64,000 nt of DNA from Bythopirellula sp. (GTDB taxonomy: Bacteria > Planctomycetota > Planctomycetia > Pirellulales > Lacipirellulaceae), in contig OZ244170.1 of NCBI GenBank assembly GCA_965216565.1, forward strand, positions 1,446,422 to 1,510,421. The letters run 5' to 3'. Under the pieces are notes generated by a model. It worked only from the letters and a program-made list of their open reading frames with translations, did not search any database and was not told the origin of the DNA. This document shows, one piece after another, positions 23,542 through 55,155 of this stretch (its first letter is position 1; every line of letters begins with the position of its first letter). The translations under genes and the position numbers were made by a program.

Positions 23542-24260
23542 GTCTGGTGATCCTCGCAGCTGTCAGTGAAGATTCCACTAATACTTAATTCCAATTCGAA
23601 CATACTGAAGTCGATGCAACCGCGAAATTCAGTGACCTCAGGAGGCAATCGGTCTGGTGCACCTCTTTCAGATTGCGATTGGATTTCGTGCAGGCGGTAT
23701 TGCATCCTCTGCCAGGAACAAACTTGCGGAACACGCAGCGGTCTCTAACTTGGACTGCGTGAGCGAGGAAGCTCGAATCTGTTCGATTGGTGCATGACGA
23801 TCGTTGGAAATTCCAGCATTGTCAAAAATCGGGAGGTACTTTCGTGCTCGATTCCGGAAGCAGGAGAATGTCATCGAATTGATGTCGAATGTACCCCCTC
23901 TGATGGCAGCACATCGTCTCTTGGACATCGCTGAGAGGAAATTTTACGGTTCACTTACCAGCGTCGGAGAAACAGTCCTCTTGTGGATAGAGCGACCAGA
24001 AAGGCACCGAAACTTGTTCAAATTTCAAAACTAGGACAACCTGACGATAGATGACAGATGGTTTTGGGTCCACACAACGAGAAAGAGATAGCGGCGTCCA
24101 AAGCTCATGCCTCAAACGCCGCCTATAAATATCAGTTAATGGTAGAGCAAAGAGCCGTCCGCAACATGAGCGGCTAAATTCGGAGAATCGCTCGCGAACA
24201 TGATATGTGTTAGTCAATAGACTCGATTCGCTATTTCCAGATCCCATGACACTTCTTGCA

Positions 24261-27200: not shown

Positions 27201-27788
27201 ACGTTCAATTTCTGCCGTTACTTTCACCACTTTTTCTTTCGCAAGCGAAAGTTGCTGACCTAACGTTGTCAGGTAGTTGCGAAGTTGGTCGACTGAGGGT
27301 ACTGCGGGCAGTTGCTGAATATCAACTGCAAGGCCGACGGGCTGCTGCAGCTTCTCAATTTCTGAACTAGAAAGCTCTAGTTCTTTCTTGAGAGCCTCAG
27401 TAGTTGCAGCTAACTTCTCTGCGTCGGCAAGCTTCGTTGCAGTTTTGTCACAAAATTCATTGGCTTCTGCGCGAGTCTCCTCGGTGCCTTCCTCGGCAAT
27501 GTCGCAACGCTTCCGTAAGCGCGCTATCGCCTCAGATGAAACTTGATGCAACTCAACTCCAACGACTTCCCCCGAGGTAGATTCCGCGGCTAGTGCGGTT
27601 TGCGCTGCTACGGAATCCGCTGCTTGCACCTCTGCAATTGCTAGCTGACTACTGAGCGATAAAAGCGAGCAAAGGCTGCATAATGCCAGTAGGTATCGAT
27701 TACTTGTCACCAAAAACACCTTCCTTGGGCCGAGTCGCTGAGGAGACCTCGTAACTCTCATCAAATGCTGCAGTACGCTAGCAGCCAA
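24261..27788 (-). CDS. MscK/KefA-like large mechanosensitive channel (MscS family) with periplasmic coiled-coil domain
   Basis: 1175 aa with a signal-like N-terminus, a long coiled-coil, about 11 TM segments, and a C-terminal MscS core [29 protein letters not shown]. TTG start; alternative Met at 27761. Confidence 0.85.
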   Translation of the reverse strand: [1175 protein letters not shown]

Positions 27789-27874
27789 TCACCCTGGTTC
27801 CATCCAGGGCAACATGGGAAGATACGGTGAACAGGCCAGGAGGGCTAGAGCAGCTTTGTTCCAGCAGGCTAGCT

Positions 27875-28339
27875 TTAGTTGCCACCTTCTCCGCCGATAT
27901 CTTGGGAGAACGCGTCCTGGATAAGCTGACTCTCTTTGTGTAGGTGCGTATCTAGCGACTTCAAAAATGCTGCAAGCTCGGCACAGAGTTGTTCAAATTC
28001 TGCAAGTTTGTCAGGAAGCGTTCTTTCCAACTGGGTAACGATTTGGTGTAGCTTTTCGCGTAGCGTAGCGTGCTCCTTCTGCAATGCCTCAATCTTACTT
28101 GCCAAATGGGGAGCCACTTCTACGGCCATGTCCATATAGCCATCGTGTTCCTCAATCGCGAACATGCGGTCAATTTGCTGCTGGAACCAACTCGTCAAGA
28201 ACCGCAGTCCTGAGAGCTTGCGAGTGAACAGCGTTCCTTCAATCGGCCAATCAATCATCGACAATAGTGCTTTACGCGTGTGTTCTAACGCCTTGTTTTC
28301 AATGCGGCACTGCTTCAAAATTCCTTTGTCGTCAACCAT
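27875..28339 (-). CDS. Hemerythrin/HHE-like four-helix protein, paralog of 48928..49407
   Basis: Motifs AIEEHDGYMD, LQKEHATLREKL and LDTHLHKESQLI. About 30% identity by eye to the paralog. Confidence 0.6.
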   Translation of the reverse strand: MVDDKGILKQCRIENKALEHTRKALLSMIDWPIEGTLFTRKLSGLRFLTSWFQQQIDRMFAIEEHDGYMDMAVEVAPHLASKIEALQKEHATLREKLHQIVTQLERTLPDKLAEFEQLCAELAAFLKSLDTHLHKESQLIQDAFSQDIGGEGGN

Positions 28340-28424
28340 TAGTAAAACTCCTAATCAAAAATTCTCGTGTGATATTAGATTTCGCTTCTGTATGAAAAAG
28401 CAAGCACCTCCAGATTCTGTTAAA

Positions 28425-28877
28425 TCACGCTGCCGGTGGCGTGGCGAGTGGAGCAAGAGCTTTGCGACCGACGATTTCGCCTCGACATACAATTGCCCCG
28501 CAGCAACACATAAACGAACGAAACAACACATCTTCTGTCTGTTCGTAGTCCATTGTCAGCAAACTACCAGCGGCGATATTTCGCTCCGCGATAAACAGCC
28601 ACGAACTGGTATCAAACCAAGAATTAGGATCACAACTATGTAGCACTTTGCCAGCAAAGTAAGGGTCGTCCAAGTGTGTGTCGGGTCCAATTTGCAACGT
28701 GGATTGGGTAATCTCATTAGTAATGACTCCATTCATGCGGAAGAGAATCTCGCCGCGATGAAAGGGGCGTAGAACGCGAACGCCTTGTCCACGCTGAGGG
28801 TCTACGTCGATCACTTCAAAATCTTCGATTTGCGGTTCCAATGGAACCGGCTTGAGATGCGAAGGGTAAATTCTCAT
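28425..28877 (-). CDS. SET-domain protein (putative lysine methyltransferase)
   Basis: LHSCDPNSWF, LLTMDYEQ and a post-SET Cys cluster CCCGAIVCRG. Confidence 0.8.
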   Translation of the reverse strand: MRIYPSHLKPVPLEPQIEDFEVIDVDPQRGQGVRVLRPFHRGEILFRMNGVITNEITQSTLQIGPDTHLDDPYFAGKVLHSCDPNSWFDTSSWLFIAERNIAAGSLLTMDYEQTEDVLFRSFMCCCGAIVCRGEIVGRKALAPLATPPAA

Positions 28878-29266
28878 TTCCTATAAATCACCTCCAATTC
28901 TATGACTTTGGGTCCGAAGAAAAGCTTCGTCACCCGTTCGACGGTTTCAGTATTAAACGGCTTGCAGCTAAAGACATCCAAATACATGTCGCGATGCGCG
29001 TCGTTTGTATGCAGCATGATGGCACTTGTTTGGATGAGCTGAACGCCAGAGATACCTGTTTCGATGCCTTCGCCAAAACGAGCCACAAACGGCAACCCAA
29101 AGCTAACCATGTCGATTTCATCCACCATCTTCTGTAAGAAATCAAATAGGACCTCTATCGAAAGCAGTTGATCGTTGCAGCTACGGGCAGTGACCAGAGC
29201 ATGTTGCCCATAGTGAGGTTGTCCGTTGTGCTGGATGCGTCGATATTCGGGTAGCGCAGAGGGCAT
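28874..29266 (-). CDS. S-adenosylmethionine decarboxylase (SpeD/SpeH class 1)-like pyruvoyl enzyme homolog, divergent active-site region
   Basis: GISGVQLIQTSAIMLHTNDAHRDMYLDVFSCKPF aligns with the canonical [32 protein letters not shown]. ATGA overlap with the SET gene. ATG at 29266 follows GGAGA. Confidence 0.65.
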   Translation of the reverse strand: MPSALPEYRRIQHNGQPHYGQHALVTARSCNDQLLSIEVLFDFLQKMVDEIDMVSFGLPFVARFGEGIETGISGVQLIQTSAIMLHTNDAHRDMYLDVFSCKPFNTETVERVTKLFFGPKVIELEVIYRK

Positions 29267-29557
29267 AACATTCTCCAAGCGAGAAAAACGATTCGAGGAA
29301 GAATCGAGAGAGAACCTGAGAGCAGTAACTGCAAGGAAGCAGCCCAGATTGTCAGAGAGAGACCGAACGTTCCGATCAGCAATCGGAGGCGGTCTTTGTC
29401 AGTTCAACTATGATTATATTATGTCGTAACGCAAAGTATTCAAGATGCTTTTTACAGAGATTATCCTTAAGGTAGCTGCATGCTATCATGAAATTAGAAT
29501 GGTTGTAGCAGGACGACACGCTAACCAATAAATTGTCCCTAATTACAAAATTGTTAT

Positions 29558-30739
29558 TTATTCAGGTCGTATCGTTACATCATTTTGCAGAGAGTCCGTG
29601 ATTTGATGTCTAGACGCATTGCTCTGGGAACTGCTCGCTACATCACCATTCGCTGCGGGGCCCGATAGCCATCCACGTCGCCAGAAGAAACCAATCAAAC
29701 CCGTAGCCACCGCAACCATCAACGTAAGCGCTAACGGGTAACCAAGCGCCCAGTCCAATTCCGGCATCATTTTGAAGTTCATTCCGTAGACGCCGGCAAT
29801 AAAGCTGAGTGGAATGAATATGGTGGCGATAATAGTCAACACTTTCATGACTTCATTCATGCGATTGCTAACCGCTGAAAGGTAAAACTCGCGTAGGTTG
29901 CCGCACATCTCGCGGTAGGTGTCGAGCGAGTCTAATATTTGCACGACGTGGTCGTAGCAATCTCGAAAATAAAGTTGTGTCTCTTCAGAAACTAGTGAGT
30001 GCGAATCACGCATCAGCATCACAAGTTCGTCCCGCAGTGGCCGTATCGCCCGTCGTAACATCATCAGGTCACCACGGATTTCGTGAATGTGCTCCATCAG
30101 TTGAGGATTGCACTCCGACAAGATGGTTGCATCGAGGTGTTCGAGGCGTTCACCATACTCGTCTACAATTGGAAAATAGAAATCAACAACGGCGTCGAGT
30201 AGGGCGTATACAAGGTAGTCGGAGCCTGAGGTTCGAATGCGACCACGCCCCTTGCGTAGACGCTCTCGCACGGGATCAAGGCAGTCTCCTTGTCGCTCCT
30301 GAAAGGTCAGTACGAAGTTCTTGCCGACGAACATGCTAATTTGCTCCGTCTCCATGATGTCGTTCCACGACATCATTCGGGCGACGATGAAAAGATGGTC
30401 GCCATACTCCTCGACCTTCGCACGTTGATGAACGTTCACTACATCCTCCAAGGCCAGAGTGTGTAGGTCGAATATCTCACCGAGCTTCTCAACTTTTCTT
30501 GCATCGCCTAATCCAACTACGTCAACCCAAGTGACACCTGAAGAGGCAACGTAATGCCGTAGCTGCTCGAGTTCGTGGACTTCCTCTTCCTTGATTATGG
30601 CCCGATCGTAGTGCATGATGCGCACCACGGGCTGCGGAGCACCGGGGTGGACTACCACTGAACCTGGAGAACTTCCTGGAGTCGTCATTCGCTGAACACG
30701 GACACTTCGCCGATGTCTGCGTTTACGTTTTTTTACCAT
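29558..30739 (-). CDS. corA: CorA magnesium/cobalt transporter
   Basis: YGMNF motif (GVYGMNFKMMPEL) and two C-terminal TM helices. Confidence 0.9.
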   Translation of the reverse strand: MVKKRKRRHRRSVRVQRMTTPGSSPGSVVVHPGAPQPVVRIMHYDRAIIKEEEVHELEQLRHYVASSGVTWVDVVGLGDARKVEKLGEIFDLHTLALEDVVNVHQRAKVEEYGDHLFIVARMMSWNDIMETEQISMFVGKNFVLTFQERQGDCLDPVRERLRKGRGRIRTSGSDYLVYALLDAVVDFYFPIVDEYGERLEHLDATILSECNPQLMEHIHEIRGDLMMLRRAIRPLRDELVMLMRDSHSLVSEETQLYFRDCYDHVVQILDSLDTYREMCGNLREFYLSAVSNRMNEVMKVLTIIATIFIPLSFIAGVYGMNFKMMPELDWALGYPLALTLMVAVATGLIGFFWRRGWLSGPAANGDVASSSQSNASRHQITDSLQNDVTIRPE

Positions 30740-31018
30740 GTGTTAAGTCCATGTGCGACGCGGGAATGTCAGTTCGTTTCGGATTGTCGGCTGCCAGCGG
30801 TATACTAGTCCAGTAAGTACTAATTCTAGTGACTGACCGTCGGATATCCGCGTTTGTTACATTCTAGTTTCTTGACTTAGTAATTACACCCAAGGGCAAG
30901 TTCGCTGCAGCTTCTGCCAGTTAGATGGTGACCGTAGCGTTATAGCTGGGCGTAATCCTAACCAATTACCTTGAATAGATTCACGATGCTGAGATCATTC
31001 GACTCTGCTATTCCGTTA

Positions 31019-32062
31019 TTACAGCGTACACATGTCGACGTTATCGAAGTTACGCCCATAGTAGTGCATGTATTCGACCTTCTTTTCTATAGCTTCGATC
31101 ACCAGGGTCGAAAAGTTGACCTTCTCGAACTGCTGGGCGCTACCTAACCCACCAGGGCTAAATACGTTGATTTCCATTAACTTGTTGCCGACGATGTCGA
31201 GACCAACTAGGAACATGCCATCTTGTACGAGCTTGGGGCGGACAATCTCTGCAATTTGCAGGTGTGTTGCGGTGATTTCCGCAGCCGCTTTCGAGCCCCC
31301 TGCATGAACGTTGCTACGCATGTCGCCGCCACTCCGCACGCGACGGAAGGCGGCATATTTTTTGCCGATTCGTAGGGGGCGGCCGTTCATGACAAACAGT
31401 CGCATGTCGCCTTCTTCGGCTGCAGGTAAATACTCTTGAGCAATTACGAACCCATCCCGGCTGACCGCGTCGATCATCTGATTCAAGTTGGGAATATCTG
31501 CCTGGCGAATCAGAAACACGCTAGCACCTCCAGAGCCTTGAAGCGGTTTGACCACGATGGTTCCTAGCTCTTGTGCAAAATGTTTGATTTCATCACGATC
31601 GCGAGTGATTAATGTTTGAGGACGCACGGTTTCTGGAAACAATTGAAAGTACATCTTGCTAGATGCTTTAGCTAAGCCGTTTGGGTCACTGAGGATGATC
31701 ACGCCATGCCGCATGGCGACACGGGCGAATTCTGTTGCGGCAGTGCTGGCCCAGGGACGACTGAGATAGTCATCGGAGGGCACGTTACGTAGAACTAGGA
31801 CGTCCAATTCATCCGCCGTGATTCGGCGTTTGACTGCCTTTTTGCTTTGCAAATCTGCAGTAAAACTGTCGGAGCTACCGTACTTTTCTTTGGGAACTGA
31901 TGTTGCTCGCGCGCGAACCATGTCGTCGGGATCGTAAGCCAAGTCTCCAACACCCATCACCCAAACTTCATGGCCGCGATTCACTGCCGCCTGCCCGAGA
32001 CGCATCGTCGTGAATTTCTTTTCCTCGGTTTGAACGTCGTTGACGATGAATCCTATTCGCAT
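31019..32062 (-). CDS. Glutathione-synthetase-like ATP-grasp ligase (GshB/RimK superfamily), copy 1
   Basis: MRIGFIVND..., KPLQGSGG, MRLFVMNGRP and EINVFSPGG. About 70% identical by eye to the upstream copy. Confidence 0.8.
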   Translation of the reverse strand: MRIGFIVNDVQTEEKKFTTMRLGQAAVNRGHEVWVMGVGDLAYDPDDMVRARATSVPKEKYGSSDSFTADLQSKKAVKRRITADELDVLVLRNVPSDDYLSRPWASTAATEFARVAMRHGVIILSDPNGLAKASSKMYFQLFPETVRPQTLITRDRDEIKHFAQELGTIVVKPLQGSGGASVFLIRQADIPNLNQMIDAVSRDGFVIAQEYLPAAEEGDMRLFVMNGRPLRIGKKYAAFRRVRSGGDMRSNVHAGGSKAAAEITATHLQIAEIVRPKLVQDGMFLVGLDIVGNKLMEINVFSPGGLGSAQQFEKVNFSTLVIEAIEKKVEYMHYYGRNFDNVDMCTL

Positions 32063-32116
32063 GATGTTTTCCTTTATCTCTAATACCATTTAATCAAGTG
32101 ATGCGTGCGATAATGG

Positions 32117-33160
32117 CTACAGAGTACACATGTCGACGTTGTCAAAGTTGCGGCCATAGAACTCCATGTAGCCAGCCTTCCGTTCCAGAGCACCGATCAC
32201 ATATTTGTTGAAGTTGATTTTGGTGAATTTTTGAGCGCTCCCGAGCCCACCAGGACTGAAGACGTTGATCTCCATGAGCTTGTCTCCCACGATATCCAGA
32301 CCGACGAGAAACATGCCGTCCTGCACCAATTTCGGCCGTACTATTTCGGCGATTCTGAGATCTTTTTCGGTCACTTCAGCCGCAGCAAGTTTGCCGCCCG
32401 CATGAATGTTGCTACGCATGTCCCCCCCCATGCGAACTCTACGGAATGCGGCATACTTTCCTTTTACTTGGAGAGGGCGGCCGTTCATGACAAACAACCG
32501 CATGTCACCCTCTTCAGCGGCGGGTAGGTATTCCTGGCAGATCACATAGCCATCGCGACTCACAGCGTCGATCATCTGGTTCAGGTTGGGTATGTCCGAC
32601 TCTTGTATCAGAAAAACCCCCGTCCCCCCCGAACCTTGGAGAGGTTTCAGGACGCAGCGTCCCTCCGACTTAGCAAAATCTCGAATCTCTTCACGATCGC
32701 GAGTAATCAACGTTCTCGGACGCACTTCTTCAGGAAACAATTGGAAGTACATCTTCGTCGAGGCTTTTGCCAGACCGTTGGGGTCATTAACTACGATCAC
32801 GCCATTGCGCATCGCCACTCGTCCAAATTCAGCGGCTGCAGTTGCAGCCCATGGCCGTTTGAGATAATCGTCTGATGGCACGTTGCGGAGCATCAAAACA
32901 TCGAGTTCGTCGACCGTGACTCGCTTTTTTACACTCTTGGGGCCTTGCAGGTCTCGAAGAAAAGTCTCTTGCGACTTGTATTTTGTCTGCGAGACAGTAC
33001 GTGCTCTCGCTCGTACGAGTTCGTCCGGATCGTAGGCGATGTCACCTACGCCAAAGACGTAGGCCTCGTGCCCTTGGTTGACCGCTTCGCAGGCGAGCCG
33101 CGTCGTGGTGAATCCAGCTTCTTCAGTGGCAATATCGTTGACGATAAATCCTATTTTCAT
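32117..33160 (-). CDS. Glutathione-synthetase-like ATP-grasp ligase, copy 2 (tandem paralog)
   Basis: Same motifs as copy 1 and the same C-terminal tail GRNFDNVDMCTL. Start is at MKIGFIVND (33160). Confidence 0.8.
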   Translation of the reverse strand: MKIGFIVNDIATEEAGFTTTRLACEAVNQGHEAYVFGVGDIAYDPDELVRARARTVSQTKYKSQETFLRDLQGPKSVKKRVTVDELDVLMLRNVPSDDYLKRPWAATAAAEFGRVAMRNGVIVVNDPNGLAKASTKMYFQLFPEEVRPRTLITRDREEIRDFAKSEGRCVLKPLQGSGGTGVFLIQESDIPNLNQMIDAVSRDGYVICQEYLPAAEEGDMRLFVMNGRPLQVKGKYAAFRRVRMGGDMRSNIHAGGKLAAAEVTEKDLRIAEIVRPKLVQDGMFLVGLDIVGDKLMEINVFSPGGLGSAQKFTKINFNKYVIGALERKAGYMEFYGRNFDNVDMCTL

Positions 33161-33204
33161 CCAAGCGTTCCTTTGACTGAGTTTTTCGTATGAGTGATTC
33201 TGCG

Positions 33205-36200
33205 TTAGTTCGATGGAGCTGTAGTTTCTCGTCCGTCGGCATTTGTCTGCTGAGGCTGGAACCAAAACTCACGTGAGGCACTATTTGCGGCATGAATATG
33301 CAAATCCCGTTGTGGGAAAGCGATGGTAATGCCCGCGGCAGCAAACTCGCGTGCAATTGCCGCATTGAGTTCGTGCAGCCCCTTGAGTCGATCTCCGATG
33401 CGTGCGTGATAGACACGCAGAGAAAAAATCAGCGAGCTGTCGCCAAATTGCTGCAAGAGGGCAACTGGCTTGGGTGAATTAAGAACTCGCGGATTTTCAC
33501 TCGCAACTTTAAGTAGCAAGTCACGAACCTGATCAGGGTCGGAGCCATACGCGACTCCAACCTCAATCACACGCCGGTTGGTCTTGTTCTGCAGAGTCCA
33601 GTTCAGCAAGCGACCTGTGGCGAATTCCTTGTTCGGCACCACCAGATCCTTGCGATCCCAGTCGGTAATTGTCGTCGCCCGCATGCGAATCGATTGCACA
33701 ACGCCAGTCGTATCACCAATCGTAATCACATCTCCGACGCGCATTGGACGCTCAAAGAGAATGATCAAGCCAGAAATGAAATTGGCAAAAATTTCCTGCA
33801 AGCCGAAACCTAAACCGAGCGACAGAGCGGCGGCCATCCATTGCACTTTGCCCCAACCGATTCCTAAGCACCCGGCTGCGAAGATGGCAGCAGCAATCCA
33901 GAGCGTATAGCGAGCAATGGTCGTGATCGAATTCCGTAGCGAACTATCGAGAGCTAATTGGTCGAGCACCGGCAGCTCGAACAATCCATCCAGATAACGC
34001 GAAGCCATTACAGTGCTGATCACCACAAACATCGCCAGCAACAGGTCACCCAATGTCACAGGTACTAAGGTGGGAACTCTCACATCAGGCGCGGGCGATT
34101 CAGTTCCAAGCGGTGCAGAGGGTTGGCTAGTTATAACTTCTGTTTCCCACAGTGTCGTATTGCTGACGGCATGGAGCGCAGGAAAGACGTCGCTCCAAAT
34201 CCACCAGCCTCCCAGCAGCAGCACTAGCACCAGTAGCGAGGTCACTAGAGACTGTATCTTGTCCTCTGGTTTATCCAACTGAACAAACCAACCATCTCCC
34301 GTGTCAGGTAGCGGAAAAGTTCCCTCGCTGCTCTCCTTTTCACGATTCGACAACGCAGTGGCAGCTCGTTGACGAGCAACAGTTTGAATAGCTCGTCGGC
34401 GAGCGATCAAACGACTACCATGTAGCAACAACGACCCGACGACGAACAGGCAGGCCATCAGCAGAAATGTTGAGCGTACTTCCTGCCCCAAACGTTCCGC
34501 CGAGTAGGTGTACCCCACGATCGCAAGAACGCCGAGCGTTAGGTGTGCCCCCACTCCGACGAGGTAGAGAGGCCAACGCAATCGATGTAGCAGCGTCTTT
34601 TCGCTTGGCTTGGCCGCACGATAGAGTATGCCCGAGTTCGGCCTCAACAATTGCTCGCTAAAGAGTGCGACTACCAAGACATTCACGACGTAACAAAGTC
34701 TGCCCAGTGAGTCCTGCAACCGCACATCGTCCTGGGCATTCAGTGTCGTCATGATAAGAATAAGTGGAAGAACGACGACCGCTAACGGAAACAGCGCTCT
34801 CCGCATAGCTGCGATACCCGGGGCAGACCAGCCAAGATGTCGGCGGGCAAAGCCTTTACGTCTGCAGAGCCGAATGAGCACTGCCAGAGGTAATAAGCAT
34901 ATCGCGACGTTGATCAGACCAATCCCGACTGCTCGTTCATATCCCTCAGAATTTCCAGCGTTGACTAATCGCTGACCTGCGAAGGCTAAAAACAGCGGCA
35001 ATGGCACGGCACACAGAGCGACTCGCAGTAGATCACGTAGAATTCGCCAATATCTCGATGGCCTCTGTGCAGACGATTGAGGCAAACTATGACGAATCGT
35101 CATTTGCCAGCCTAGTGTGCGTGCAGAAAGCAACGATATAGCAACCAAACCAAAAGGCAAGGGGTGCTTCGCATAGTCAGCAGAGATCGTATTCCAAGTT
35201 TGTCGGAGAAATCCACCTTGAAAGAAATCTCGTATTCCGTCAAAGGAGGCAGCAACAGAGCTTGACGACATGCTTTCGGTGCTGCGTACCCAAAGAACGT
35301 TTTCGTCAATGAAGTTGGTCAGGCTGCTGATGTCCTGAGCAAGTTGGCGTTGGGCTTCATCAAGGGCTAGTAATTGCTCAAGATAGACTTTGTAATCCTC
35401 TAGGAGCAAATCAACGTAACGTCGCTCCGCGTTTAACAAACGCTCCCAAGTTTTACGAGGATTCTCGCTCGCCTGCTTTTCGTCTGGCAACTTTCCCTGC
35501 GTAATTAGCCGGTTCATCTCATTCTCGACATTGGCTAGGTCAGAGCGTCGATCCTGGAGTTCGAGCAGGGCCAGTTGCGCCGTTTTCAGTGTTTGCTGAC
35601 GGAGGTCAATTTCACGCTCATGCTGGTCGATGCGTGGAAGCTCAGACTTTTGCTTACGCATAAGCAAGCCGATGGTCCCTGTAAGTCCAACTGCCTCGAC
35701 TTTGCGGCGAATCCTACCTTGTTGTTGATTGAGCTGGGTCGCTGTTGAATTGATCGCTGCCAGTGCATCGTTCGTAGTGTCAATCTGCTGACGTAATTCT
35801 TGGCGACGCTCCACCAATGCCAGATTAGTGCTCGCAAGGTCTGCAAACTGTGGTAAACCGGTGTTTCTATTAGTTTCTTCTTTGGCCTCAATCAGATGCA
35901 GGGCAACTTCGGTTGTTCGTTTGCGATTCAACTCACCCTGTAGCGTCTTGGCGATTTTGTGCAATCGGGCAACGCGGTTTGCCGCTACGTCTCGCTGCAA
36001 TGGCAACAAGTCGATCGTTGCCTGATAGGCCTTTAGTTCGATGGCACCCACATCAATTGCCGACTGAGTGGCTCGAATGCTAGCCTCCAATTGAACTCGT
36101 TTTGCAGCCGCCAATTCAGGTGGATCGTTGGTCTTGTCTATTAGCTTGAGGGTTTGTTCGTCCTGCTGTAGCTTCTCACGCAAACTAATGCGTTGCTGAG

Positions 36201-36696
36201 GAATCTCCTTGCGCCTAGTCGCGCGGTATTTTGGTTCTTTATCAAGGCGTCGCAGGACTTTCTTTGCTTCCGAGAGTTCGGCTTCCGCTTCAATCAGCTT
36301 TTCTTGCAGAATAGAGATAGACACTTCAGAGCCAACTACAGGTAGAGCCGCTTGTGCCAGCTGGCTGAGTTCGTACCTAGTGCGCCCGACATCTTCTGGG
36401 GCAGTTCGCTGCGATGATGCATACTGCTCTGACAAAACAGCTAGCTTGTCTGCCTGCCGCAGATCAGCAATTGCCAATTCGTAAAGCGTCAGAATCTGCT
36501 TTTTTGTCTCTTCAGGTAGAGCTGAGGTAGCTTTTGTAGCTTCTATCTGCGACTGAAGTTTCTCAACAGAGATCGTGTCTGCCAGCAGAGTTTGCGATGA
36601 GCAAAGGCCAATTGCCAAAAACACGGAAGTGGCAAAGCTCAATAATGAGAAGATTGTAGAATACTGGAACGATCTGTTTTGAAAGATGCTCTTCAT
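33205..36696 (-). CDS. MscK/KefA-like large mechanosensitive channel, second paralog
   Basis: 1163 aa with the same architecture as 24261..27788. MscS core is [29 protein letters not shown]. Confidence 0.85.
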   Translation of the reverse strand: [1163 protein letters not shown]

Positions 36697-36700
36697 CGGA

Positions 36701-38629
36701 TTACCTCACTTCCTTGCGAGATGCCAATTCGGCCAACGAACAAGAGCTTTCCCGCAACACATTGAGGCGTTTCACGGAGTCACTGGTGAGTAAATGCCTA
36801 GGCACAAGCGGTGGAGCATGCAGCACCTTGCGATATTGCAGTTCTCTGACGATTGGCAAATGCTCGTGGGCAATCTTGCCCACAAACAGCACATTGATGT
36901 CTCCATTCTGCTGAAGGTGCTGCAAGACGGTTTGCAAACCTCGCAAATAGACGGCGTCCTTGGTTAGGCCTCCTCCACGGTAGACGCGCATCACGATGTT
37001 GTAAGCTCTGCGTTTCGTGAAGCCGAATTTATTGACGAGTGCACGAAAGGCTTCTACAAAAGTCGCGTGTTCAGTCCTTAGTCGTACCGCGACAACGCGG
37101 CCAGCGAGTTGACGTAAACGAGCATCGCTCAGTCCGCCCACCAAGTACTCGGACAGTACAGCAATGCCTTCCTGAAGTTCTTCGTAACCCGATAAACCAG
37201 CATGCAGTAGCTGAAACGGCTGTGCCTGAGCGTTATAGTACGTCAGTACATGCGTACCCACTTCGTGGGCTAAGAGGGCTTGGACGCGTGACTGAGATAT
37301 ATCAAGATCCGAGTTGATCAGTAGCGTCCCCCGAGAGACCATCACGCCACTAACTTCTTCGGTCACTTCAGCCCGGCCTGCAAACTCGGGCCAAGTATTG
37401 TGATAGTGACGGAATTCATCGCGTGCCAGTGCTGCAAACTCTTCTGCAGTTACTGAGCCTTTTTTTCTTTCAGAGGCATCCCTAGCCACTAAGGAAAGAA
37501 GACTCAGTGCCTCACCGTAGAGGTCGTCCTTGACGCCGCCAAATAGCTGCAAGCTCTGGTACAAGAACCTCGGTGTGTCGCGGTCTTGTAGCATTGTCAG
37601 CTGTAGTTCTAGCTCGGCTTGTTTTTCATAAAAGAGTCGCTGTAGTGCAGGATCCTCTACACGCTCGATTGGAATCTTGAACAGCTCGCGTTTGAGAGCA
37701 ATGGGGTCCACCGTTTGTGGTCGATAGTGAAATTCGGGGGCTTGCTCAAACTTACTCCGGTGGAATTCATGCCAAGCCTGCACCGTGTTGACCGGAGTCA
37801 GCTGCAGTAGGTAATCGAATTGGTCACTAATTCCCGCCAGACGACGATCAGCGTTCCAGACGGATTTGACAACTGCTTTGCGACCAAGTGCGTGGAAGTG
37901 GGGTGGGCGGTGTGATGTACAGGTACGGGCAAATTCATAAAAAGCTTGGCGCAAGGCCAAACTCACGCTCCGTCTTAAGGAACGAGCCAATAGGGGATAG
38001 TCTTCTTCAGAGCCCGCTGCACGATATACGGGAGGTACTGTCAGCCCCAGGAAGGAGCAATGGAGTTCGCTTGCCCTTTTTATCGACAACAGCGGCGCAA
38101 ATTGCGTTGGCCAGGTCTTGCCGTCACGTTGTACCTCGACCTTTACCCCTTGTTTCAGCACCTTGATACGGCGCAAACGCTTGGCGAGTGCTTCCACTGC
38201 TCGGCTGATGGATGCTTGTGAGGATGCATGAATGGCGAATTTCGGTAACACGTCGGGTACTGCCGGATCATTCGCATCCCCTCCCTCGGGAGCCGCCCAT
38301 ACTTCGACGATTAGCAGTGCACCGAACTCTCTCGCAAGCGCTTCTGTAACACAGTCAACAACAAGAGATATTTCCTTTGGCGACGCTTCTGCCTCTGTGA
38401 CGATAAGGTAGGATGCTTCGGCTTTGACGAGGTGCTCAGTCCCCGAATCGGAAGCATCGAGCGGCTGACGATAGATGCACAGAAATGGTAACTGCCGATC
38501 AATGTGCAGGCGCCCAATTCCGGGCAGCGTACGTCTTACTCGTTGATTCTGCGCAAGGCGTTGAGAGACCACATCGAGGATGGATCTAAGGAGTTTTGAT
38601 CTCTTGATGGGTTCCTTGCTGATGGGCAA
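36701..38629 (-). CDS. DUF1704 / QEGLA-motif family protein (putative metallo-carboxypeptidase, MATCAP-like)
   Basis: LAHEVGTHVLTY (HExxxH-like) and ELQEGIAVLSEY (QEG[L/I]A). TTG start follows AAAGGAA. Confidence 0.7.
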   Translation of the reverse strand: MPISKEPIKRSKLLRSILDVVSQRLAQNQRVRRTLPGIGRLHIDRQLPFLCIYRQPLDASDSGTEHLVKAEASYLIVTEAEASPKEISLVVDCVTEALAREFGALLIVEVWAAPEGGDANDPAVPDVLPKFAIHASSQASISRAVEALAKRLRRIKVLKQGVKVEVQRDGKTWPTQFAPLLSIKRASELHCSFLGLTVPPVYRAAGSEEDYPLLARSLRRSVSLALRQAFYEFARTCTSHRPPHFHALGRKAVVKSVWNADRRLAGISDQFDYLLQLTPVNTVQAWHEFHRSKFEQAPEFHYRPQTVDPIALKRELFKIPIERVEDPALQRLFYEKQAELELQLTMLQDRDTPRFLYQSLQLFGGVKDDLYGEALSLLSLVARDASERKKGSVTAEEFAALARDEFRHYHNTWPEFAGRAEVTEEVSGVMVSRGTLLINSDLDISQSRVQALLAHEVGTHVLTYYNAQAQPFQLLHAGLSGYEELQEGIAVLSEYLVGGLSDARLRQLAGRVVAVRLRTEHATFVEAFRALVNKFGFTKRRAYNIVMRVYRGGGLTKDAVYLRGLQTVLQHLQQNGDINVLFVGKIAHEHLPIVRELQYRKVLHAPPLVPRHLLTSDSVKRLNVLRESSCSLAELASRKEVR

Positions 38630-38687
38630 AACGATTCCTTTTGTAATGTAGTAAATCAGCAGCCTCTCTCATCGCATTTTCACGCCC

Positions 38688-39509
38688 CTAGTGAGCAATG
38701 AGTTGAAGCTTGTTTACCTCTTCTAAAATCCCAGGTACCGTCGACGCTAAAGCCTTCTGTACTGCTTTCAATAAATGTCGTTCGGGTTTGCCGCTCCATT
38801 CGCACATAAAGAACTTTTTGAATTCAATTGAAATCACACACGCTGCCTCTGGAAAACACTGGTGTGTCCATTCGGCATGGTGACCACCCATGAATTTTAC
38901 ATTTTCGCGCACATCAAGTCGCCCAGTTGGGAAATCATAGTTGGATAGTTCATACATGAAGCGATAGAGTAATGGACGAAACCGTGGCTCTGATCGCATC
39001 GTGCCCGTACCAATGTTGACTTGTGGGTTCTCAGCCGGATCTGCGAGTGGCCCATTGGGACCGTTCCGACGATGGTTGTACGTATGCAGGTCGAAGACAA
39101 CAAAGGTTCCATGCTCCTCGGCTAACTCCTGGTAGAGCATACCGAGCGCCTCGTAAAACCGATCGTACTGCTTAAGGGAACGCTGCGCGATTTCTTCTGG
39201 AAGCTCTTCTTTCCAAATTTGTAATCCCCACGCATCTTCTGGTTTTCGATAGACGGCTCGTTCACGAGGACGATTGAGATCGACCTCAAACCGAGAGCGC
39301 AAGCCAACCACACGTGTTGGCGCGACTTCCGTCCAATCGCCCGTGTAGGGATCTTCTTCACGCCGTCGATCCTCTTTGCTGATCGCCATCTGCTCATGCA
39401 CTTCGCTACGTACCTCGTGGCCATGGTGAATAGCGGTCGCAACGATTGGCCCTGCTCCACGATGAAGCTCCCAAATTTGATCGGTCACCTGCGTTCTCTG
39501 CGTATGCAA
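38688..39509 (-). CDS. N-formylglutamate amidohydrolase (FGase) family protein
   Basis: GPIVATAIHHGHEVRSEV..., DLHTYNHRR; family resemblance by eye. TTG start. Confidence 0.6.
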   Translation of the reverse strand: MHTQRTQVTDQIWELHRGAGPIVATAIHHGHEVRSEVHEQMAISKEDRRREEDPYTGDWTEVAPTRVVGLRSRFEVDLNRPRERAVYRKPEDAWGLQIWKEELPEEIAQRSLKQYDRFYEALGMLYQELAEEHGTFVVFDLHTYNHRRNGPNGPLADPAENPQVNIGTGTMRSEPRFRPLLYRFMYELSNYDFPTGRLDVRENVKFMGGHHAEWTHQCFPEAACVISIEFKKFFMCEWSGKPERHLLKAVQKALASTVPGILEEVNKLQLIAH

Positions 39510-39577
39510 TGCCTGTTGAAACGAGCACTAGGTTCCTGGCCGCTCAGTGCCAAGTGGCTCTACAACGTTGTTCTAAG

Positions 39578-39592
39578 GCAAAGGGTGTGCCG
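39578..39592 (-). promoter_or_regulatory. sigma54 -24/-12 promoter (CGGCAC-N5-TTGC) for the FGase-DUF1704-MscK-GshB operon
   Basis: The minus strand reads CCGGCACACCCTTTGCC. The -12 element is 69 nt upstream of the start at 39509. Confidence 0.6.
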
Positions 39593-39853
39593 GTGACTTT
39601 TGATGAGGATCACGGCTCTTATGGTGCAAGCACACTGGGCCGCTCTGACGCTATGCGTTAAGGCGATATCGATTGGAAACAGCTAGATTGTGAAGGCCAG
39701 ACACATGATGTCGCCACAAGTGCCTTGGTTAATAAGTGCCCACGGTGTCCAATAGCTACCCAGGAAGAATCGAGTTTTGGAGCTGCCCAGGCAAGGTCCG
39801 GTTAAGCGTCTACGCTTTTTTCGTATTTCTAAAAGTGTTTTTTTGTTGTCGCT

Positions 39854-39868
39854 TGGCACATTGTTTGC
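39854..39868 (+). promoter_or_regulatory. sigma54 -24/-12 promoter (perfect TGGCAC-N5-TTGC)
   Basis: TTGGCACATTGTTTGCC, divergent from the promoter at 39578. Confidence 0.75.
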
Positions 39869-39906
39869 CTTTGTTACGTTAGGCAGTGATTAGGGCACTG
39901 TCTGTC

Positions 39907-39998
39907 CGTCACGGTCGCGCGGGTTTCTTCTAGGGTGGGACGCACAATCGAGGAGAACACCTGAGCCTATTGGTGGCTTGGCTTGCGCGACCGTGACG
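39907..39998 (+). promoter_or_regulatory. Structured leader: perfect 14-bp long-range stem enclosing 64 nt
   Basis: CGTCACGGTCGCGC (39907-39920) pairs with GCGCGACCGTGACG (39985-39998). It lies ~27 nt downstream of the predicted sigma54 start site and ~50 nt upstream of the ATG at 40051. Confidence 0.6.
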
Positions 39999-40050
39999 AA
40001 TCGTTGTTCGCCCACTTTCACTGAAGGAGAGCTATAAGCAAGAAAGAAAT

Positions 40051-40422
40051 ATGTCGACCTACCTACAAATCACGGCCAGCAACATCACTCAAAAAGCAAA
40101 GTTCGAAGACGGCACCCGGCTGCCAATCGAACTGTGGGCAATCTGTGATGAGGGCGAAGAGACTTCATGTTTGGCTGGACTGGTGCTCCACCCCAAGACA
40201 AAAAAGTTGGTGCGAGCCGATCATTTGCCCGGTTTTCTGTCGTATCACAGTGATCGGCTTGGGTCGGGATTTCATCGGTTCAGTCGACTGCCCAGTCGGC
40301 GAAACGTGGAAAGGCAGCAACCAAAGAACTCCGGTGCTAAATCTGGCAAGGCCGAACGACCACAGGTTAGACAGATTGGTCAGAAATTAGCCAAGAAAAC
40401 GTTCCTCTCGCAGTCGGCCTAG
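40051..40422 (+). CDS. Hypothetical protein with basic C-terminal tail
   Basis: 123-aa ORF downstream of the sigma54 promoter and leader. Confidence 0.55.
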   Translation: MSTYLQITASNITQKAKFEDGTRLPIELWAICDEGEETSCLAGLVLHPKTKKLVRADHLPGFLSYHSDRLGSGFHRFSRLPSRRNVERQQPKNSGAKSGKAERPQVRQIGQKLAKKTFLSQSA

Positions 40423-40467
40423 CTTGCGAAAGTAATTGAGAAGCTTACAAAGTGCGACTTCTCATTC

Positions 40468-40482
40468 CGGCACACAAACTGC
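40468..40482 (+). promoter_or_regulatory. Weak sigma54-like element (CGGCAC-N5-CTGC) upstream of csrA copy 1
   Basis: CCGGCACACAAACTGCT. GG and GC have correct spacing, with two mismatches at flanking T positions. Confidence 0.3.
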
Positions 40483-40631
40483 TCATCATTGATTGCCGTG
40501 AGGGTAAAAGTTGCCATGCAGGCTTGGTCTGGGCACTAGGGGTTGGTTGACATTCACGGGATGTTGGCTGACCAGCCCTCGCGGTACTTTTTGGCATCAC
40601 GCCGCTTACCCACTTGGAGAGGAGACATGCT

Positions 40632-40853
40632 ATGCTAGCACTTGCGCGGAGGCCTGGAGAATCCATCCACATCGGTGACAACATTACCGTGCAAATCGTA
40701 TCCGTTCGAGGCCAGCGGGTGAAGTTAGCGATTGATGCCCCGCGTGAAATAAGCATCGACCGACACGAAATCTGGCTCCGAAAATTCGCCGGAACGGTGG
40801 TGCTGCCGATAGAGTCAACGAGCGTCGCACCGACGCACTTGAAGCCCCGATGA
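40632..40853 (+). CDS. csrA: Carbon storage regulator CsrA/RsmA family RNA-binding protein, copy 1
   Basis: MLALARRPGESIHIGDNITVQIVSVRGQRVKLAIDAPREISIDRHEIW. GGAGAGGAG lies 8 nt upstream. Confidence 0.9.
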   Translation: MLALARRPGESIHIGDNITVQIVSVRGQRVKLAIDAPREISIDRHEIWLRKFAGTVVLPIESTSVAPTHLKPR

Positions 40854-40926
40854 GTCGCAACGAAATTGCGATAGTTGTGATGGATAATTCAAAGAATCAA
40901 CTGAAGTCGCGTTAGAACTTCTCAAT

Positions 40927-43371
40927 ATGCATCTACCCATCGCAGATTTCCCGATTACTACGGAGCGAGACTTCAACTGGTCTGCCCAGCGTGCTCGTCT
41001 GCTTGGCACGCTGGCAAGCCTTCGCCCTAAGGCCCGCAATGCGTTCTCAAAATCAATTGCCGAAGCAGCTCGAGCGATCATTCCCAAGCCTTTTCGAGGC
41101 AACATCCAGTTCGCCATTGGAGCTAGCCAGCAACAACAGTTCATCGAAGCCACCATCATTGGGCAAGCAACGGACGCTGGACAGCCAAAAGTAGACAAGC
41201 AGGCTCTCGAAAAACTGGTTGACGAAGTGCTAGTCGATTCGAGCAACGCAGATGGCAGCACGATTACGCTGCGAAAACGACTCCCTGACAACTGCCCCTT
41301 ACTAGGCCCGGAAGACGTTACGGAGTGGGGTACTATGCTGGCAACCCGTACCACCGAAGGGGCGTTAGTGCAGGCCCAACACCGATTGCGCGAGGTCCTC
41401 GCCACATCTAGTTCACCGAGTACAAACACCAGAGATGCACAGGTCCATGAACTGCTGGCATTAGTGGCGAGCACCACGGACAATTCAGTCGTCGTGATGG
41501 ATGCGATCGGGCAGGTGGAATGGGTGAATGATAGCTTTATGCGTATGACCGGATATGAGTTAAACGAAATTCAAGGGCAACTGTTTTTTGAGTTATTGAT
41601 TGGTCCAGAAACCGATCAAAGTTCTGCCAGGGATTTACAGTCGGCGATCAAGCTAGGGCATGGGGTGAGCAAGGATGTGCTTCGCTATCGTAAAGATGGT
41701 AAAACTTATTGGGAATTGTTGAGCCTGACTCCCGTGTTTGATAAGAGTGGTTCAGCCAGTCGATGGGTTTCGATTGGGACAGATATTTCCGCCAGGCACG
41801 CAGCGGAAGAGGCTCTCGCACAAGCCAAAGCGACCGCCGAAGCGGCCAGCAATGCCAAAAGCGACTTCTTGGCTAATATGAGCCACGAAATACGTACGCC
41901 CATGAATGCTGTGTTGGGCATGACCGACTTAGCTTTGGGAACAAAGCTCACATCGGAACAGAACGAATATCTTTCTATCGCCAAAGAATCAGCTCAAGCG
42001 TTGATGAGTTTACTGAACGATATTCTTGACCTCTCAAAAATAGAAGCGGGCAAACTCGCGGTTGATCCGGTCCCGTTCGATCTGTCCCGGTTAGTCGAAA
42101 ACACACTCAAACCTTTCGCCAAACAAGCCATCAGCAAAGGCATTCAGTTTCAACATGCCATTTTGGCTGACACGCCCACTCACCTTATTGGAGACGCAAC
42201 TCGAGTCCGGCAGATTCTCATCAATCTGGTTAGCAATGCGGTGAAATTCACGAGTCTGGGGAGCATCGACATCTGTGTGGAATCACAATGGGAATCTGAA
42301 GAAGATGTTTCGCTACATCTTTCCGTCAGCGATACCGGGATTGGCATGCCCAAAGAGACATTGCAGCGGATTTTTGACGCGTTTACTCAAGCGGATAGCT
42401 CCATCACGCGAGAGTATGGCGGTACGGGGCTCGGCTTGACAATCTCCGCTCGACTTGTTGAGCTCATGCGGGGGCGTATTTGGGTGCAAAGCCACGAGGG
42501 AAATGGTTCGATGTTCCACGTCTCGTTGCCGTTTCAAAAGACAGATGAGCACAATGTAAGATCAACTGCGGGCTCCAACGGAATAGTTTCATATCCAGAA
42601 GCCAGCCAGCCCTGTCGAGCACTCAACATACTCGTAGCCGATGACAACCAAGCGAATCGTGCCCTGGCCAAAAAGATACTCGAAAAGCGCGGACATCAAG
42701 TCGCTGTCGTCACCAATGGCAGCGAGGCCTTGGATTACTATCAAGCCCATAATCTGGATGCAGCAATTCTCGATATCCAAATGCCAGAGCTTGACGGCTT
42801 CTCTGTCACAGCCGCCATCCGCCGTGAGGAGTCTACTAAGCAAACTCATTTACCTTTAATCGCCATGACCGCTCATGCCATGCCAGGTGATCGGGAGCGT
42901 TGTCTCCGTGCTGGCTTAGATGCTTATCTCTCCAAACCCATCAACGCCCGCGAACTTTACACGCTGGTTGAAAGCTTGGGGCAGACACAGAGGCACACGC
43001 AGGTGATCACTCAGGCAGAGACTCTCGTGGAGTCGTCCACGCATCCCTTCGCTGCTGCCTTAGCCCGCTTAGAGGGAGATGAAGAACTGCTTCGCGAGCA
43101 GATGCAGTTCTTCCTTGATGAAAGTCCAGATTTGATGGACCGAGTGCTGGCTGCGCTGGATGAAGAAAATCAAGAGCAGGTACGTATCGCCGCCCATCGC
43201 CTCAAAGGATTAGCGGGTACCGTGGATGGGGGTGAGTTATGTATGATTGCCAACCGCATTGAGCAGTCAAGCGCAGCGGGCTCACTGGATGAAGTCACGG
43301 CCGTCATCGACGAACTTGCCTCAGCGCTGACGCGACTTATAGACCATGTCAGCGACTATGTGTCGTCATGA
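40927..43371 (+). CDS. Hybrid sensor histidine kinase (PAS - HisKA - HATPase - receiver - HPt)
   Basis: H-box MSHEIRTPMN, G-boxes DTGIGM and GGTGLGL, receiver ILVADDNQANR...DIQMPELDG...KP, and HPt AAHRLKG. Confidence 0.9.
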   Translation: MHLPIADFPITTERDFNWSAQRARLLGTLASLRPKARNAFSKSIAEAARAIIPKPFRGNIQFAIGASQQQQFIEATIIGQATDAGQPKVDKQALEKLVDEVLVDSSNADGSTITLRKRLPDNCPLLGPEDVTEWGTMLATRTTEGALVQAQHRLREVLATSSSPSTNTRDAQVHELLALVASTTDNSVVVMDAIGQVEWVNDSFMRMTGYELNEIQGQLFFELLIGPETDQSSARDLQSAIKLGHGVSKDVLRYRKDGKTYWELLSLTPVFDKSGSASRWVSIGTDISARHAAEEALAQAKATAEAASNAKSDFLANMSHEIRTPMNAVLGMTDLALGTKLTSEQNEYLSIAKESAQALMSLLNDILDLSKIEAGKLAVDPVPFDLSRLVENTLKPFAKQAISKGIQFQHAILADTPTHLIGDATRVRQILINLVSNAVKFTSLGSIDICVESQWESEEDVSLHLSVSDTGIGMPKETLQRIFDAFTQADSSITREYGGTGLGLTISARLVELMRGRIWVQSHEGNGSMFHVSLPFQKTDEHNVRSTAGSNGIVSYPEASQPCRALNILVADDNQANRALAKKILEKRGHQVAVVTNGSEALDYYQAHNLDAAILDIQMPELDGFSVTAAIRREESTKQTHLPLIAMTAHAMPGDRERCLRAGLDAYLSKPINARELYTLVESLGQTQRHTQVITQAETLVESSTHPFAAALARLEGDEELLREQMQFFLDESPDLMDRVLAALDEENQEQVRIAAHRLKGLAGTVDGGELCMIANRIEQSSAAGSLDEVTAVIDELASALTRLIDHVSDYVSS

Positions 43372-47896: not shown

Positions 47897-47986
47897 AGCG
47901 TGGATTGGGGTTTGTGGAGGAGATGGCCAACCCACAGTTTCTCCGTTCAGGTGCTGCCGAGCAAGCGGCATCTTTTCTTTCGGGCT

Positions 47987-48846: not shown

Positions 48847-48861
48847 GCAAGTAATGTGCCA
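48847..48861 (-). promoter_or_regulatory. sigma54 -24/-12 promoter (perfect) for the 48800->44227 signalling operon
   Basis: The minus strand reads TTGGCACATTACTTGCC, 47 nt upstream of the start at 48800. Confidence 0.75.
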
Positions 48862-48881
48862 AAAACCAACGACCTATATCG

Positions 48882-48896
48882 TGGCACACCGCTTGC
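48882..48896 (+). promoter_or_regulatory. sigma54 -24/-12 promoter (perfect) for hemerythrin-like gene + mgtE
   Basis: GTGGCACACCGCTTGCT, 32 nt upstream of the ATG at 48928. Confidence 0.75.
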
Positions 48897-55140: not shown

Positions 55141-55155
55141 GCAATCGATGTGCCA
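55141..55155 (-). promoter_or_regulatory. sigma54 -24/-12 promoter (perfect) upstream of groES-groEL
   Basis: The minus strand reads TATGGCACATCGATTGCATC, 49 nt upstream of the groES ATG. Confidence 0.7.

Follow-up and report, generated by a model that had tools for sequence, protein, structure and literature searches.

The MATCAP peptidases were reportedly recognised only in 2022-2023 as erasers of tubulin tail modifications. FGase-family enzymes of known function, such as HutG, act on small N-acyl amino acids. In eukaryotes, MATCAP/TMCP enzymes cut off C-terminal Tyr and Glu and shorten the polyglutamate chains made by ATP-grasp TTLLs (PMC10499314). In bacteria, the glutamate-ligase/peptidase pair RimK/RimB has been proposed to control both S6 tails and the glutamate/polyglutamate pool, and a related ATP-grasp operon affects hypo-osmotic survival (PMC11957051). 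Here we describe an operon of the planctomycete Bythopirellula sp. (Pirellulales; Lacipirellulaceae) that combines an FGase-like amidohydrolase, a MATCAP-type metallopeptidase (DUF1704, or QEGLA-motif protein), an MscK-type channel and two tandem GshB-like ATP-grasp ligases. It lies within a stretch of 64,000 nucleotides (nt), the whole of which was analysed and is referred to below as the window (assembly GCA_965216565.1, contig OZ244170.1, positions 1,446,422 to 1,510,421 of the forward strand). Co-transcription of an ATP-grasp amidoligase with a peptidase is a known kind of system, but this particular triad appears to be uncharacterised and partly misannotated; we found no functional study in the literature of bacterial DUF1704/QEGLA proteins or of the linkage between ATP-grasp and FGase genes.

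The reading we favour, at a probability of roughly 0.4, is that the locus encodes a ligase/hydrolase module for ion and osmotic homeostasis. It would build, and cut back again, a small acidic peptide or a short amide-linked extension, probably of glutamate type. The uncharacterised features appear to include the FGase-MATCAP fusion together with a related pseudo-domain, a conserved ligase tail, and the association of the module with Mg2+ transporters and mechanosensitive channels.

Organisation of the operon

The genes of the locus, with protein lengths in amino acids (aa), are as follows.

39509..38688, minus strand: FGase-like gene, 273 aa
38629..36701, minus strand: DUF1704/MATCAP/QEGLA gene, 642 aa
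36696..33205, minus strand: MscK-type channel gene, 1163 aa
33160..32117, minus strand: ATP-grasp ligase A gene, 347 aa
32062..31019, minus strand: ATP-grasp ligase B gene, 347 aa
30739..29558, minus strand: CorA Mg2+ channel gene, 393 aa (Pfam CorA, 8e-68), probable end of the transcription unit

The first-pass annotation of this DNA had described five co-directional genes, from FGase to ligase B. The open reading frames (ORFs) confirmed this and, with the ligase A and B starts set at the ATG that gives M[KR]IGF (MKIGF... in ligase A), the intergenic gaps of 58, 4, 44 and 54 nt. Its gene set and domain assignments were also right, with Pfam and NCBIfam agreeing on every domain call. The FGase gene, which opens the operon, starts with TTG.

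As proposed, the five genes look operonic. The MATCAP and MscK genes are only 4 nt apart, close enough for tight translational coupling; a metagenomic relative (L081) repeats this spacing and has overlaps between the genes that follow. A consensus scan found no terminator-like hairpin between the five genes. The proposed end at ligase B did not hold up as well. The sole non-coding terminator-like hairpin lies 3' of CorA (29306..29289), and the transcription unit thus probably extends over six genes, although hairpin positions are weak evidence since counts in the terminator and sigma70 promoter consensus scans were not above those in shuffled sequence. A CorA gene stands right behind the final ATP-grasp gene, on the same strand, in loci from Pirellulaceae, Poribacteria and Calditrichaeota. 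No Rfam match to a riboswitch or leader RNA was found at E ≤ 1 in 24000..41000. Just downstream of CorA (28425..29278, minus strand) lies an unusual pairing: a gene for an AdoMet-decarboxylase-like protein (134 aa) and one for a SET-domain protein (150 aa), with a 4-nt overlap.

The triad is conserved across bacteria

A scan with the single 642-aa sequence found nothing, and an alignment-based scan was needed. With one genome per species, this showed the 642-aa protein to have at least 588 relatives, and the best 80 were analysed. They represent around 12 phyla (Planctomycetota, Chloroflexota, Acidobacteriota, Poribacteria, Bacteroidota, Ignavibacteria, Calditrichota, Gemmatimonadota, Kiritimatiellae, Dadabacteria, Thermodesulfobacteriota and Proteobacteria). 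Both FGase and ATP-grasp homologues were found near the MATCAP gene in 62 of the 65 well-flanked loci, defined as having at least 1.5 kb on each side. The order FGase > MATCAP > ATP-grasp on one strand was seen in 59 of the 65, the two gaps having medians of 53 and 24 nt. The cassette also occurs on Shinella plasmids and on pSymB of Sinorhizobium meliloti, where the MATCAP protein is 36-37% identical to that of the window and the genes are annotated as 'N-formylglutamate amidohydrolase / QEGLA motif protein / glutathione synthase'.

In Photobacterium sp. DA100 a single 660-aa protein joins MATCAP to an FGase domain that is intact, with every motif in place and a Pfam score of 54 bits. The ligase gene there, of the NCBIfam family NF009110 considered below, overlaps the fusion gene by 17 nt. 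That the two hydrolases are fused is a separate line of evidence for their joint action. Linkage of ATP-grasp, DUF1704 and FGase genes in other genomes, which the first-pass annotation had put forward as a check, is thus borne out by the 62 loci with all three genes, the 59 with the same order and the Photobacterium fusion. Among other Vibrionaceae, Vibrio sp. HDW18 has a fused FGase-MATCAP gene without an adjacent ligase, and the QEGLA gene adjoins hdfR (LysR family) and maoP (DUF413) in this family.

Tandem ligase paralogues, of which the window has two, reach up to three in relatives, accompanied by two MATCAPs. In four Pirellulaceae loci, three ATP-grasp genes accompany two MATCAP paralogues (43% identical to the window protein), and the order in the closest relatives is FGase-MATCAP1-ligase3-ligaseA-MATCAP2-ligaseB-CorA. 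This expanded cassette suggests matched ligase/peptidase pairs.

No conserved small ORF (20-90 aa) adjoins the core beyond close relatives, and a RiPP-type (ribosomally synthesised and post-translationally modified peptide) precursor reading was therefore rejected. A small gene (83-129 aa) lies directly upstream of FGase in four Poribacteria loci; judging by eye from its sequence, we take it to be a YtxH-like candidate. Five Acidobacteriota loci have a 770-aa creatininase-domain fusion and a DUF1611 protein near the cassette.

The ligases are probably distinct from glutathione synthetase

Ligases A and B each contain the Pfam domains GSH-S_N and GSH-S_ATP. They are 74.6% identical over 347 aa and their final 13 residues, YGRNFDNVDMCTL, are common to both, which upholds the earlier description of two GshB-like proteins about 70% identical with identical tails. 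Both ligases belong to NF009110 (PRK12458), which they match end to end over the 349-position model at 462 and 449 bits (cut-off 408); the S. meliloti and Photobacterium ligases score 501 and 488 bits. By contrast, they fall below both GshB equivalog models, with 198 and 204 bits against 299 for TIGR01380 and 216 and 219 bits against 272 for NF003573. The RimK equivalog NF007764 gave only 38-41 bits against 331. By the NCBIfam equivalog cut-offs, the ligases would therefore be something other than ordinary GshB, as the first-pass annotation had supposed. The Photobacterium ligase lies just above the NF003573 cut-off (292 bits against 272).

E. coli GshB is nonetheless the closest sequence relative in the PDB (5e-38, 29% identity) and the best fold match (1gsa, template-modelling (TM) score 0.86), followed by RimK and LysX/ArgX. 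In the alignment to 1gsa, K, R, D, E and N positions which we take to be the ATP/Mg2+ ligands of E. coli GshB are identical in the ligase. Across phyla the ligases are 65-79% identical, compared with 44-60% for the FGase and MATCAP proteins.

The C-terminal tail is a further hallmark of these ligases. It reads ...RKVxYMxYYxRNFDNxEMATL, with a fixed end position, in every locus and in the alphaproteobacteria. In around 70 sequences Y335 and the terminal L347 are 100% conserved and N341 is 99% conserved. The AlphaFold2 model of ligase B has a predicted local distance difference test (pLDDT) score of 85 overall and 49 over the last 7 residues. The Photobacterium ligase ends differently (...ADATTF), and the tail motif is therefore not universal in NF009110.

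Two predicted zinc hydrolases accompany the ligases

The 642-aa protein matches PF08014 (4e-89, 299.7 bits against a cut-off of 27) and TIGR02421, the QEGLA model (342 bits against 338.65). It consists of a degenerate FGase-like N-domain (residues ~1-250) and a MATCAP/DUF1704/QEGLA domain (~260-620). MATCAP enzymes are defined by an HExxxH zinc motif and a third Glu ligand in E-G(-L-A) (PMC10499314). In the window protein, H455, E456 and H460 of HExxxH and E487 of QEGLA are invariant in 60 homologues, and the two motifs align with HEIGTH and EEGLA of the human protein. In the AlphaFold2 model (pLDDT 86), Foldseek matched the C-terminal half to human MATCAP (7z6s_C, E 7.7e-9, target-normalised TM score 0.66). 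The MATCAP domain is thus predicted to be a metallopeptidase with intact catalytic motifs. Clustered at 50% identity, the DUF1704 family comprises 3008 clusters with E ≤ 1e-3 and 614 with E ≤ 1e-30; the best of the matches listed have mostly the long two-domain form.

The N-terminal half (~250 residues) matched FGase 2q7s, amidase_3 and other phosphorylase/hydrolase-like folds, and in hhalign it aligned with residues 69-257 of the stand-alone FGase (E 1.4e-4); fold and profile comparisons are the only ones in which this kinship is seen. The domain lacks the first 68 residues of FGase, which hold two putative ligands, and has no His at the third ligand position. It is an FGase-derived pseudo-domain, probably used for binding or scaffolding, and an active second FGase in this protein was rejected because the metal ligands are missing. 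The assignment of DUF1704 as a MATCAP-type peptidase in the first-pass annotation therefore agrees with family, motifs and fold, but it had missed this N-domain.

The stand-alone FGase-like protein matches Pfam FGase PF05013 (8e-19, 69 bits against a cut-off of 28.9) and scores only 21.7 bits against a cut-off of 278.75 for the HutG model TIGR02017. Pfam scans of the window and of flanking ORFs found no hut genes nearby. Residues H28, D53, H142, E229, R73 and R80 are invariant in 25 homologues, and the protein is probably an active Zn amidohydrolase.

Ion channels and transporters lie beside the cassette

The channel encoded within the operon contains the Pfam domains MscS_porin, MscS_TM and the MscS core. 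It scores 523 bits against the NF008438 MscK cut-off of 991, so that its domains indicate an MscK/MscM-type large channel of the MscS family without demonstrating MscK orthology. No full-length MscK gene lies between MATCAP and ligase in 80 other loci, and MscK was accordingly rejected as a conserved cassette member. In L081, whose ligase is 92% identical to that of the window, the order is MATCAP-MscK-peptidase S9-ligase-ligase. As this relative repeats the arrangement with its 4-nt gap and overlaps, the MscK insertion appears real, operonic and specific to this clade. The additional L081 gene (5710..7788) encodes a 692-aa serine peptidase of the S9 (prolyl-oligopeptidase) family with overlapping stop and start codons, the third peptide hydrolase of that operon.

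Other ion-transport genes recur beside the core. The commonest Pfam families in the 109 ORFs that directly adjoin the core were CNNM (6), CorA (5), MgtE (4-5), MscS (5), SLC12-like permease (4) and TrkA_C (3). Within 10 kb we counted the following, as lower bounds because many contigs are short.

Any Mg2+ transporter of the three unrelated families CorA, MgtE and CNNM: 26/80 loci
MscS-family channel: 18/80 loci
Mg2+ transporter, MscS channel or SLC12-like carrier: 35/80 loci

Genome-wide, such transporters would, by a rough estimate, be expected at a few per cent. The first-pass annotation had pointed to the embedded mechanosensitive channel; mechanosensitive channels do recur, but the strongest recurrent neighbours are the Mg2+ transporters.

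A second MscK-type channel gene (27788..24261, minus strand, 1175 aa), 29% identical to the operon channel, lies 5.4 kb downstream. Two hemerythrin-HHE-like paralogues (27875..28339, minus strand, and 48928..49407, plus strand), 31% identical over their full length, stand directly upstream of this second MscK gene and of an MgtE gene, respectively. This looks like a repeated sensor-plus-channel pairing.

Related genes are induced at low salt

Expression data exist for a related gene pair in Photobacterium damselae. In an RNA-seq comparison of 1% with 3% NaCl, the GshB-annotated gene RS17020 was up 38-fold and the QEGLA gene RS17025 27-fold (PMC10308900). Low salt also raised expression of RimK (52-fold), the 56-aa hypothetical RS17005 (18.6-fold), maoP (9-fold), a mechanosensitive channel (5.5-fold) and a magnesium transporter (5.3-fold) (PMC10308900). 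RS17020 (1029 nt) and RS17025 (1983 nt) overlap by 17 nt, and the pair in Photobacterium sp. DA100 agrees with them in both gene length and overlap. The osmotic link that the first-pass annotation had drawn from the embedded channel is consistent with the recurrent ion-transport neighbours and with this low-salt induction, even though MscK itself is no conserved part of the cassette. Its osmolyte idea fared worse, as induction at low salt misfits a classical compatible solute accumulated at high osmolarity.

A sigma54-type promoter element precedes the operon

The first-pass annotation had called the operon sigma54-driven on the basis of a CGGCAC-N5-TTGC match (39592..39578, minus strand). The elements concerned, and a nearby regulator gene, are as follows.

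39592..39577, minus strand: sigma54-type element CGGCACACCCTTTGCC (-24 GG / -12 GC), 68 nt before the FGase TTG start
39854..39869, plus strand: divergent sigma54-type element TGGCACATTGTTTGCC, facing the ORF 40051..40422 and a hybrid histidine kinase gene (40927..43371)
Within 48847..48896: a back-to-back pair of boxes between ORF166 and hemerythrin-MgtE
48860..48847, minus strand: the GGCAC-N5-TTGC site of this pair that heads an operon ending in genes for an NtrC-type activator, a Ser/Thr kinase and PP2C
55141..55154: GGCAC-N5-TTGC site upstream of a GroES-GroEL-PP2C-TerC operon
46439..47971, minus strand: NtrC-type sigma54 enhancer-binding protein (EBP) gene (Pfam REC + sigma54 AAA+ + HTH_8)

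GGCAC-N5-TTGC occurs at five sites in the window, compared with 0.82 expected, and none of 100 shuffles reached five. All five boxes read [T/C]GGCACA-N4-TTGC and lie in the right orientation 31-182 nt before an ORF; the operon box and the 39854..39869 box form an inverted pair 263 nt apart. As the site count exceeds chance and every site is correctly placed, a sigma54 promoter ahead of the operon is statistically credible. One of the five boxes precedes the hemerythrin-like and MgtE gene pair. The pattern suggests that the window resembles a small local sigma54 regulon, again including an Mg2+ transporter gene. The EBP gene, ~7 kb from the operon and downstream of the 48860..48847 box, is a candidate source of the activator for these promoters. 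No 8-10-mer that might serve as an EBP-binding motif was shared upstream of the five boxes.

Between the plus-strand box and the ORF 40051..40422 (123 aa, no Pfam match) lies a perfect 14-nt inverted repeat, CGTCACGGTCGCGC ... GCGCGACCGTGACG (39907..39920 / 39985..39998), with 64 nt between its arms. A leader hairpin is one possibility for it, a binding site another.

Of ~70 related loci, ~6-7 have a comparable box before FGase, compared with ~1.1 expected; these are mainly from Pirellulales and Poribacteria. Sigma54 control therefore seems to be a feature of lineages and not a property of the cassette: the promoter call of the first-pass annotation is credible for this operon but does not extend to the cassette at large. 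In Poribacteria an EBP gene and a perfect box stand directly upstream of the cassette. EBP genes were present in 13 of the 80 loci; sigma54 EBP genes are, by our own estimate, abundant in these phyla and, Poribacteria excepted, we therefore did not count them as enriched neighbours.

Discussion

In the module we favour, one or more NF009110-type ATP-grasp ligases would use ATP and Mg2+ to form an amide-linked extension, most likely by placing one or more glutamate-type residues on a carboxylate acceptor to give a small acidic peptide. The two zinc hydrolases would, as a pair, dismantle it, the MATCAP-type carboxypeptidase trimming C-terminal residues (exo-trimming) and the FGase-type amidohydrolase cutting the last acyl-amino-acid bond. 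Substrate, physiological direction of flux and this division of labour between the hydrolases are what we infer. Such a module could adjust the cytoplasmic K-glutamate/Mg2+ pool when salinity changes, above all on a downshift. In the planctomycete version, the sigma54 promoter would co-transcribe it with an MscK-type release valve and the CorA Mg2+ channel.

Several points weigh against this proposal. Glutamate is only the presumed added residue, and a ligase co-transcribed with its hydrolases would run in a futile cycle unless some additional control acted. The unusual conservation of the ligase (65-79%) and its conserved, low-confidence tail would be more readily explained by a macromolecular partner than by a small-molecule substrate. 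The loci analysed are those of the 80 best-matching among at least 588 relatives of the window protein. The enrichment of ion transporters beside the cassette is seen relative to a rough estimate of our own for genome-wide frequencies. The P. damselae pair was matched to that of DA100 by gene length, overlap and annotation and not by sequence comparison, and the Photobacterium proteins are ~30% identical to those of the window.

The main rival to the proposed peptide module is one in which the ligases write, and the hydrolases erase, a protein tail. The ligases would add residues to the C-terminus of a protein, either a housekeeping protein, as RimK does with S6, or their own tail; MATCAP and FGase would remove them, and the state of the tail would tune the protein to ion conditions. 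MATCAP/TMCP enzymes are protein C-terminal carboxypeptidases, RimK/RimB offers a bacterial precedent, and the best fold matches behind GshB are RimK and LysX/ArgX, enzymes whose substrates are protein C-termini. The greater identity of the ligases across phyla relative to MATCAP (65-79% against 44-60%) points the same way, as does the ligase tail: its fixed length, its essentially invariant Y335, N341 and L347 and its seven low-confidence final residues are as expected of a linear motif read by another active site. The lack of a conserved small precursor ORF beside the cassette also fits, and any protein substrate would therefore be encoded elsewhere or be a cassette protein. However, GshB, the closest relative in sequence and fold, is a small-peptide ligase, FGase-family enzymes of known function have small N-acyl amino acids as substrates, the analysis turned up no candidate target, and the tail of the Photobacterium ligase (...ADATTF) differs. 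On balance we consider protein-tail editing somewhat unlikely.

Two further explanations are less likely than either of these. The hydrolases might serve salvage, breaking an imported or stored N-acyl or gamma-/alpha-glutamyl peptide down to amino acids whilst the ligase acts elsewhere, for example in re-charging a related compound, with the ion-transport neighbours reflecting a shared stress regulon. FGase is a catabolic enzyme family according to Pfam, an S9 serine peptidase lies inside the L081 operon, creatininase-domain and DUF1611 genes occur at some Acidobacteria loci, and an ABC transporter adjoins the S. meliloti cassette. An ATP-consuming ligase that is missing from hardly any locus and exceeds the other members in conservation would nevertheless be unusual for a degradation pathway, and the 109 flanking ORFs revealed no conserved uptake system beside the core, so that we hold salvage to be improbable. 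Ordinary glutathione synthesis, with a duplicated gshB and peptidases and channels as unrelated neighbours, is what database names imply, since they call the ligase genes glutathione synthase; E. coli GshB heads the PDB matches (5e-38 by sequence; TM score 0.86 by fold), and the Photobacterium ligase just passes NF003573 (292 against 272 bits). We regard it as very improbable indeed, given that the window ligases reach only 198-219 bits against cut-offs of 272-299 for the two GshB equivalog models, are only 29% identical to E. coli GshB and have an extra conserved 17-aa tail and tandem paralogues. Near-obligate linkage to FGase and MATCAP in ~12 phyla, extending to gene fusion, also argues against it, and the 25 Pfam families seen most often in the 109 flanking ORFs include none of gshA type.

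The proposed peptide module is of wider interest since the cassette occurs in at least 12 phyla, including the tractable Sinorhizobium meliloti and Photobacterium/Vibrio, under database names of which at least the first is probably wrong. That it repeatedly lies beside mechanosensitive channels and Mg2+ transporters of three unrelated families, and that low salt induces the P. damselae pair 27- to 38-fold, together point to an enzymatic layer of bacterial ion and osmotic homeostasis that had gone unrecognised. The module would be an accessible model for ligase/MATCAP pairs, and its study would correct a widespread misannotation.

Comparison with known systems

HutG, the N-formylglutamate amidohydrolase, shares the Pfam FGase family and the conserved H/D/H/E residues with the operon protein. 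The latter differs in falling far below the TIGR02017 cut-off and in lacking a hut context, and in Vibrionaceae the FGase domain is fused to MATCAP. The operon channel resembles E. coli MscK (KefA) in domain architecture and size; unlike MscK, it falls below the equivalog cut-off, is embedded in an enzyme operon and has a second paralogue nearby. E. coli GshB (1gsa) has the same two Pfam domains as the ligases and is their best fold match (TM score 0.86), but the operon ligases are set apart by an insertion in the N-domain, the 17-aa conserved tail, tandem paralogues and obligate linkage to two hydrolases.

RimK/RimB of Pseudomonas and E. coli, which acts on S6 and on free poly-alpha-glutamate, likewise has a GshB/RimK-clade ligase co-transcribed with a peptidase that can reverse its reaction. 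Here, however, the ligase is GshB-like, the peptidases are predicted zinc enzymes (MATCAP and FGase) whereas RimB is a retropepsin, and ion-channel genes are embedded in the operon. The two systems resemble each other in logic alone.

The tubulin tail cycle (TTL/TTLL with MATCAP/TMCP, KIAA0895L) differs from the operon in its tubulin substrate, absent here, and in its ligase, which is TTL-type whilst the bacterial one is GshB-type. Human MATCAP, ~20% identical to the bacterial protein, also lacks the FGase or FGase-like domain that the latter carries. As a long shot, the cassette might correspond in bacteria to the tubulin-code writer and eraser, and may even be what these evolved from. The ligase would extend its own tail (...N-x-E-M-A-T-L-COOH) or that of another protein, MATCAP and the FGase domain would trim it, and the state of the tail would gate ion channels or transporters or buffer Mg2+/K-glutamate during osmotic shifts. 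What the two systems have in common is a peptidase of the same family (PF08014), with the same HExxxH and E-G motifs and the same fold, paired with an ATP-grasp amino-acid ligase.

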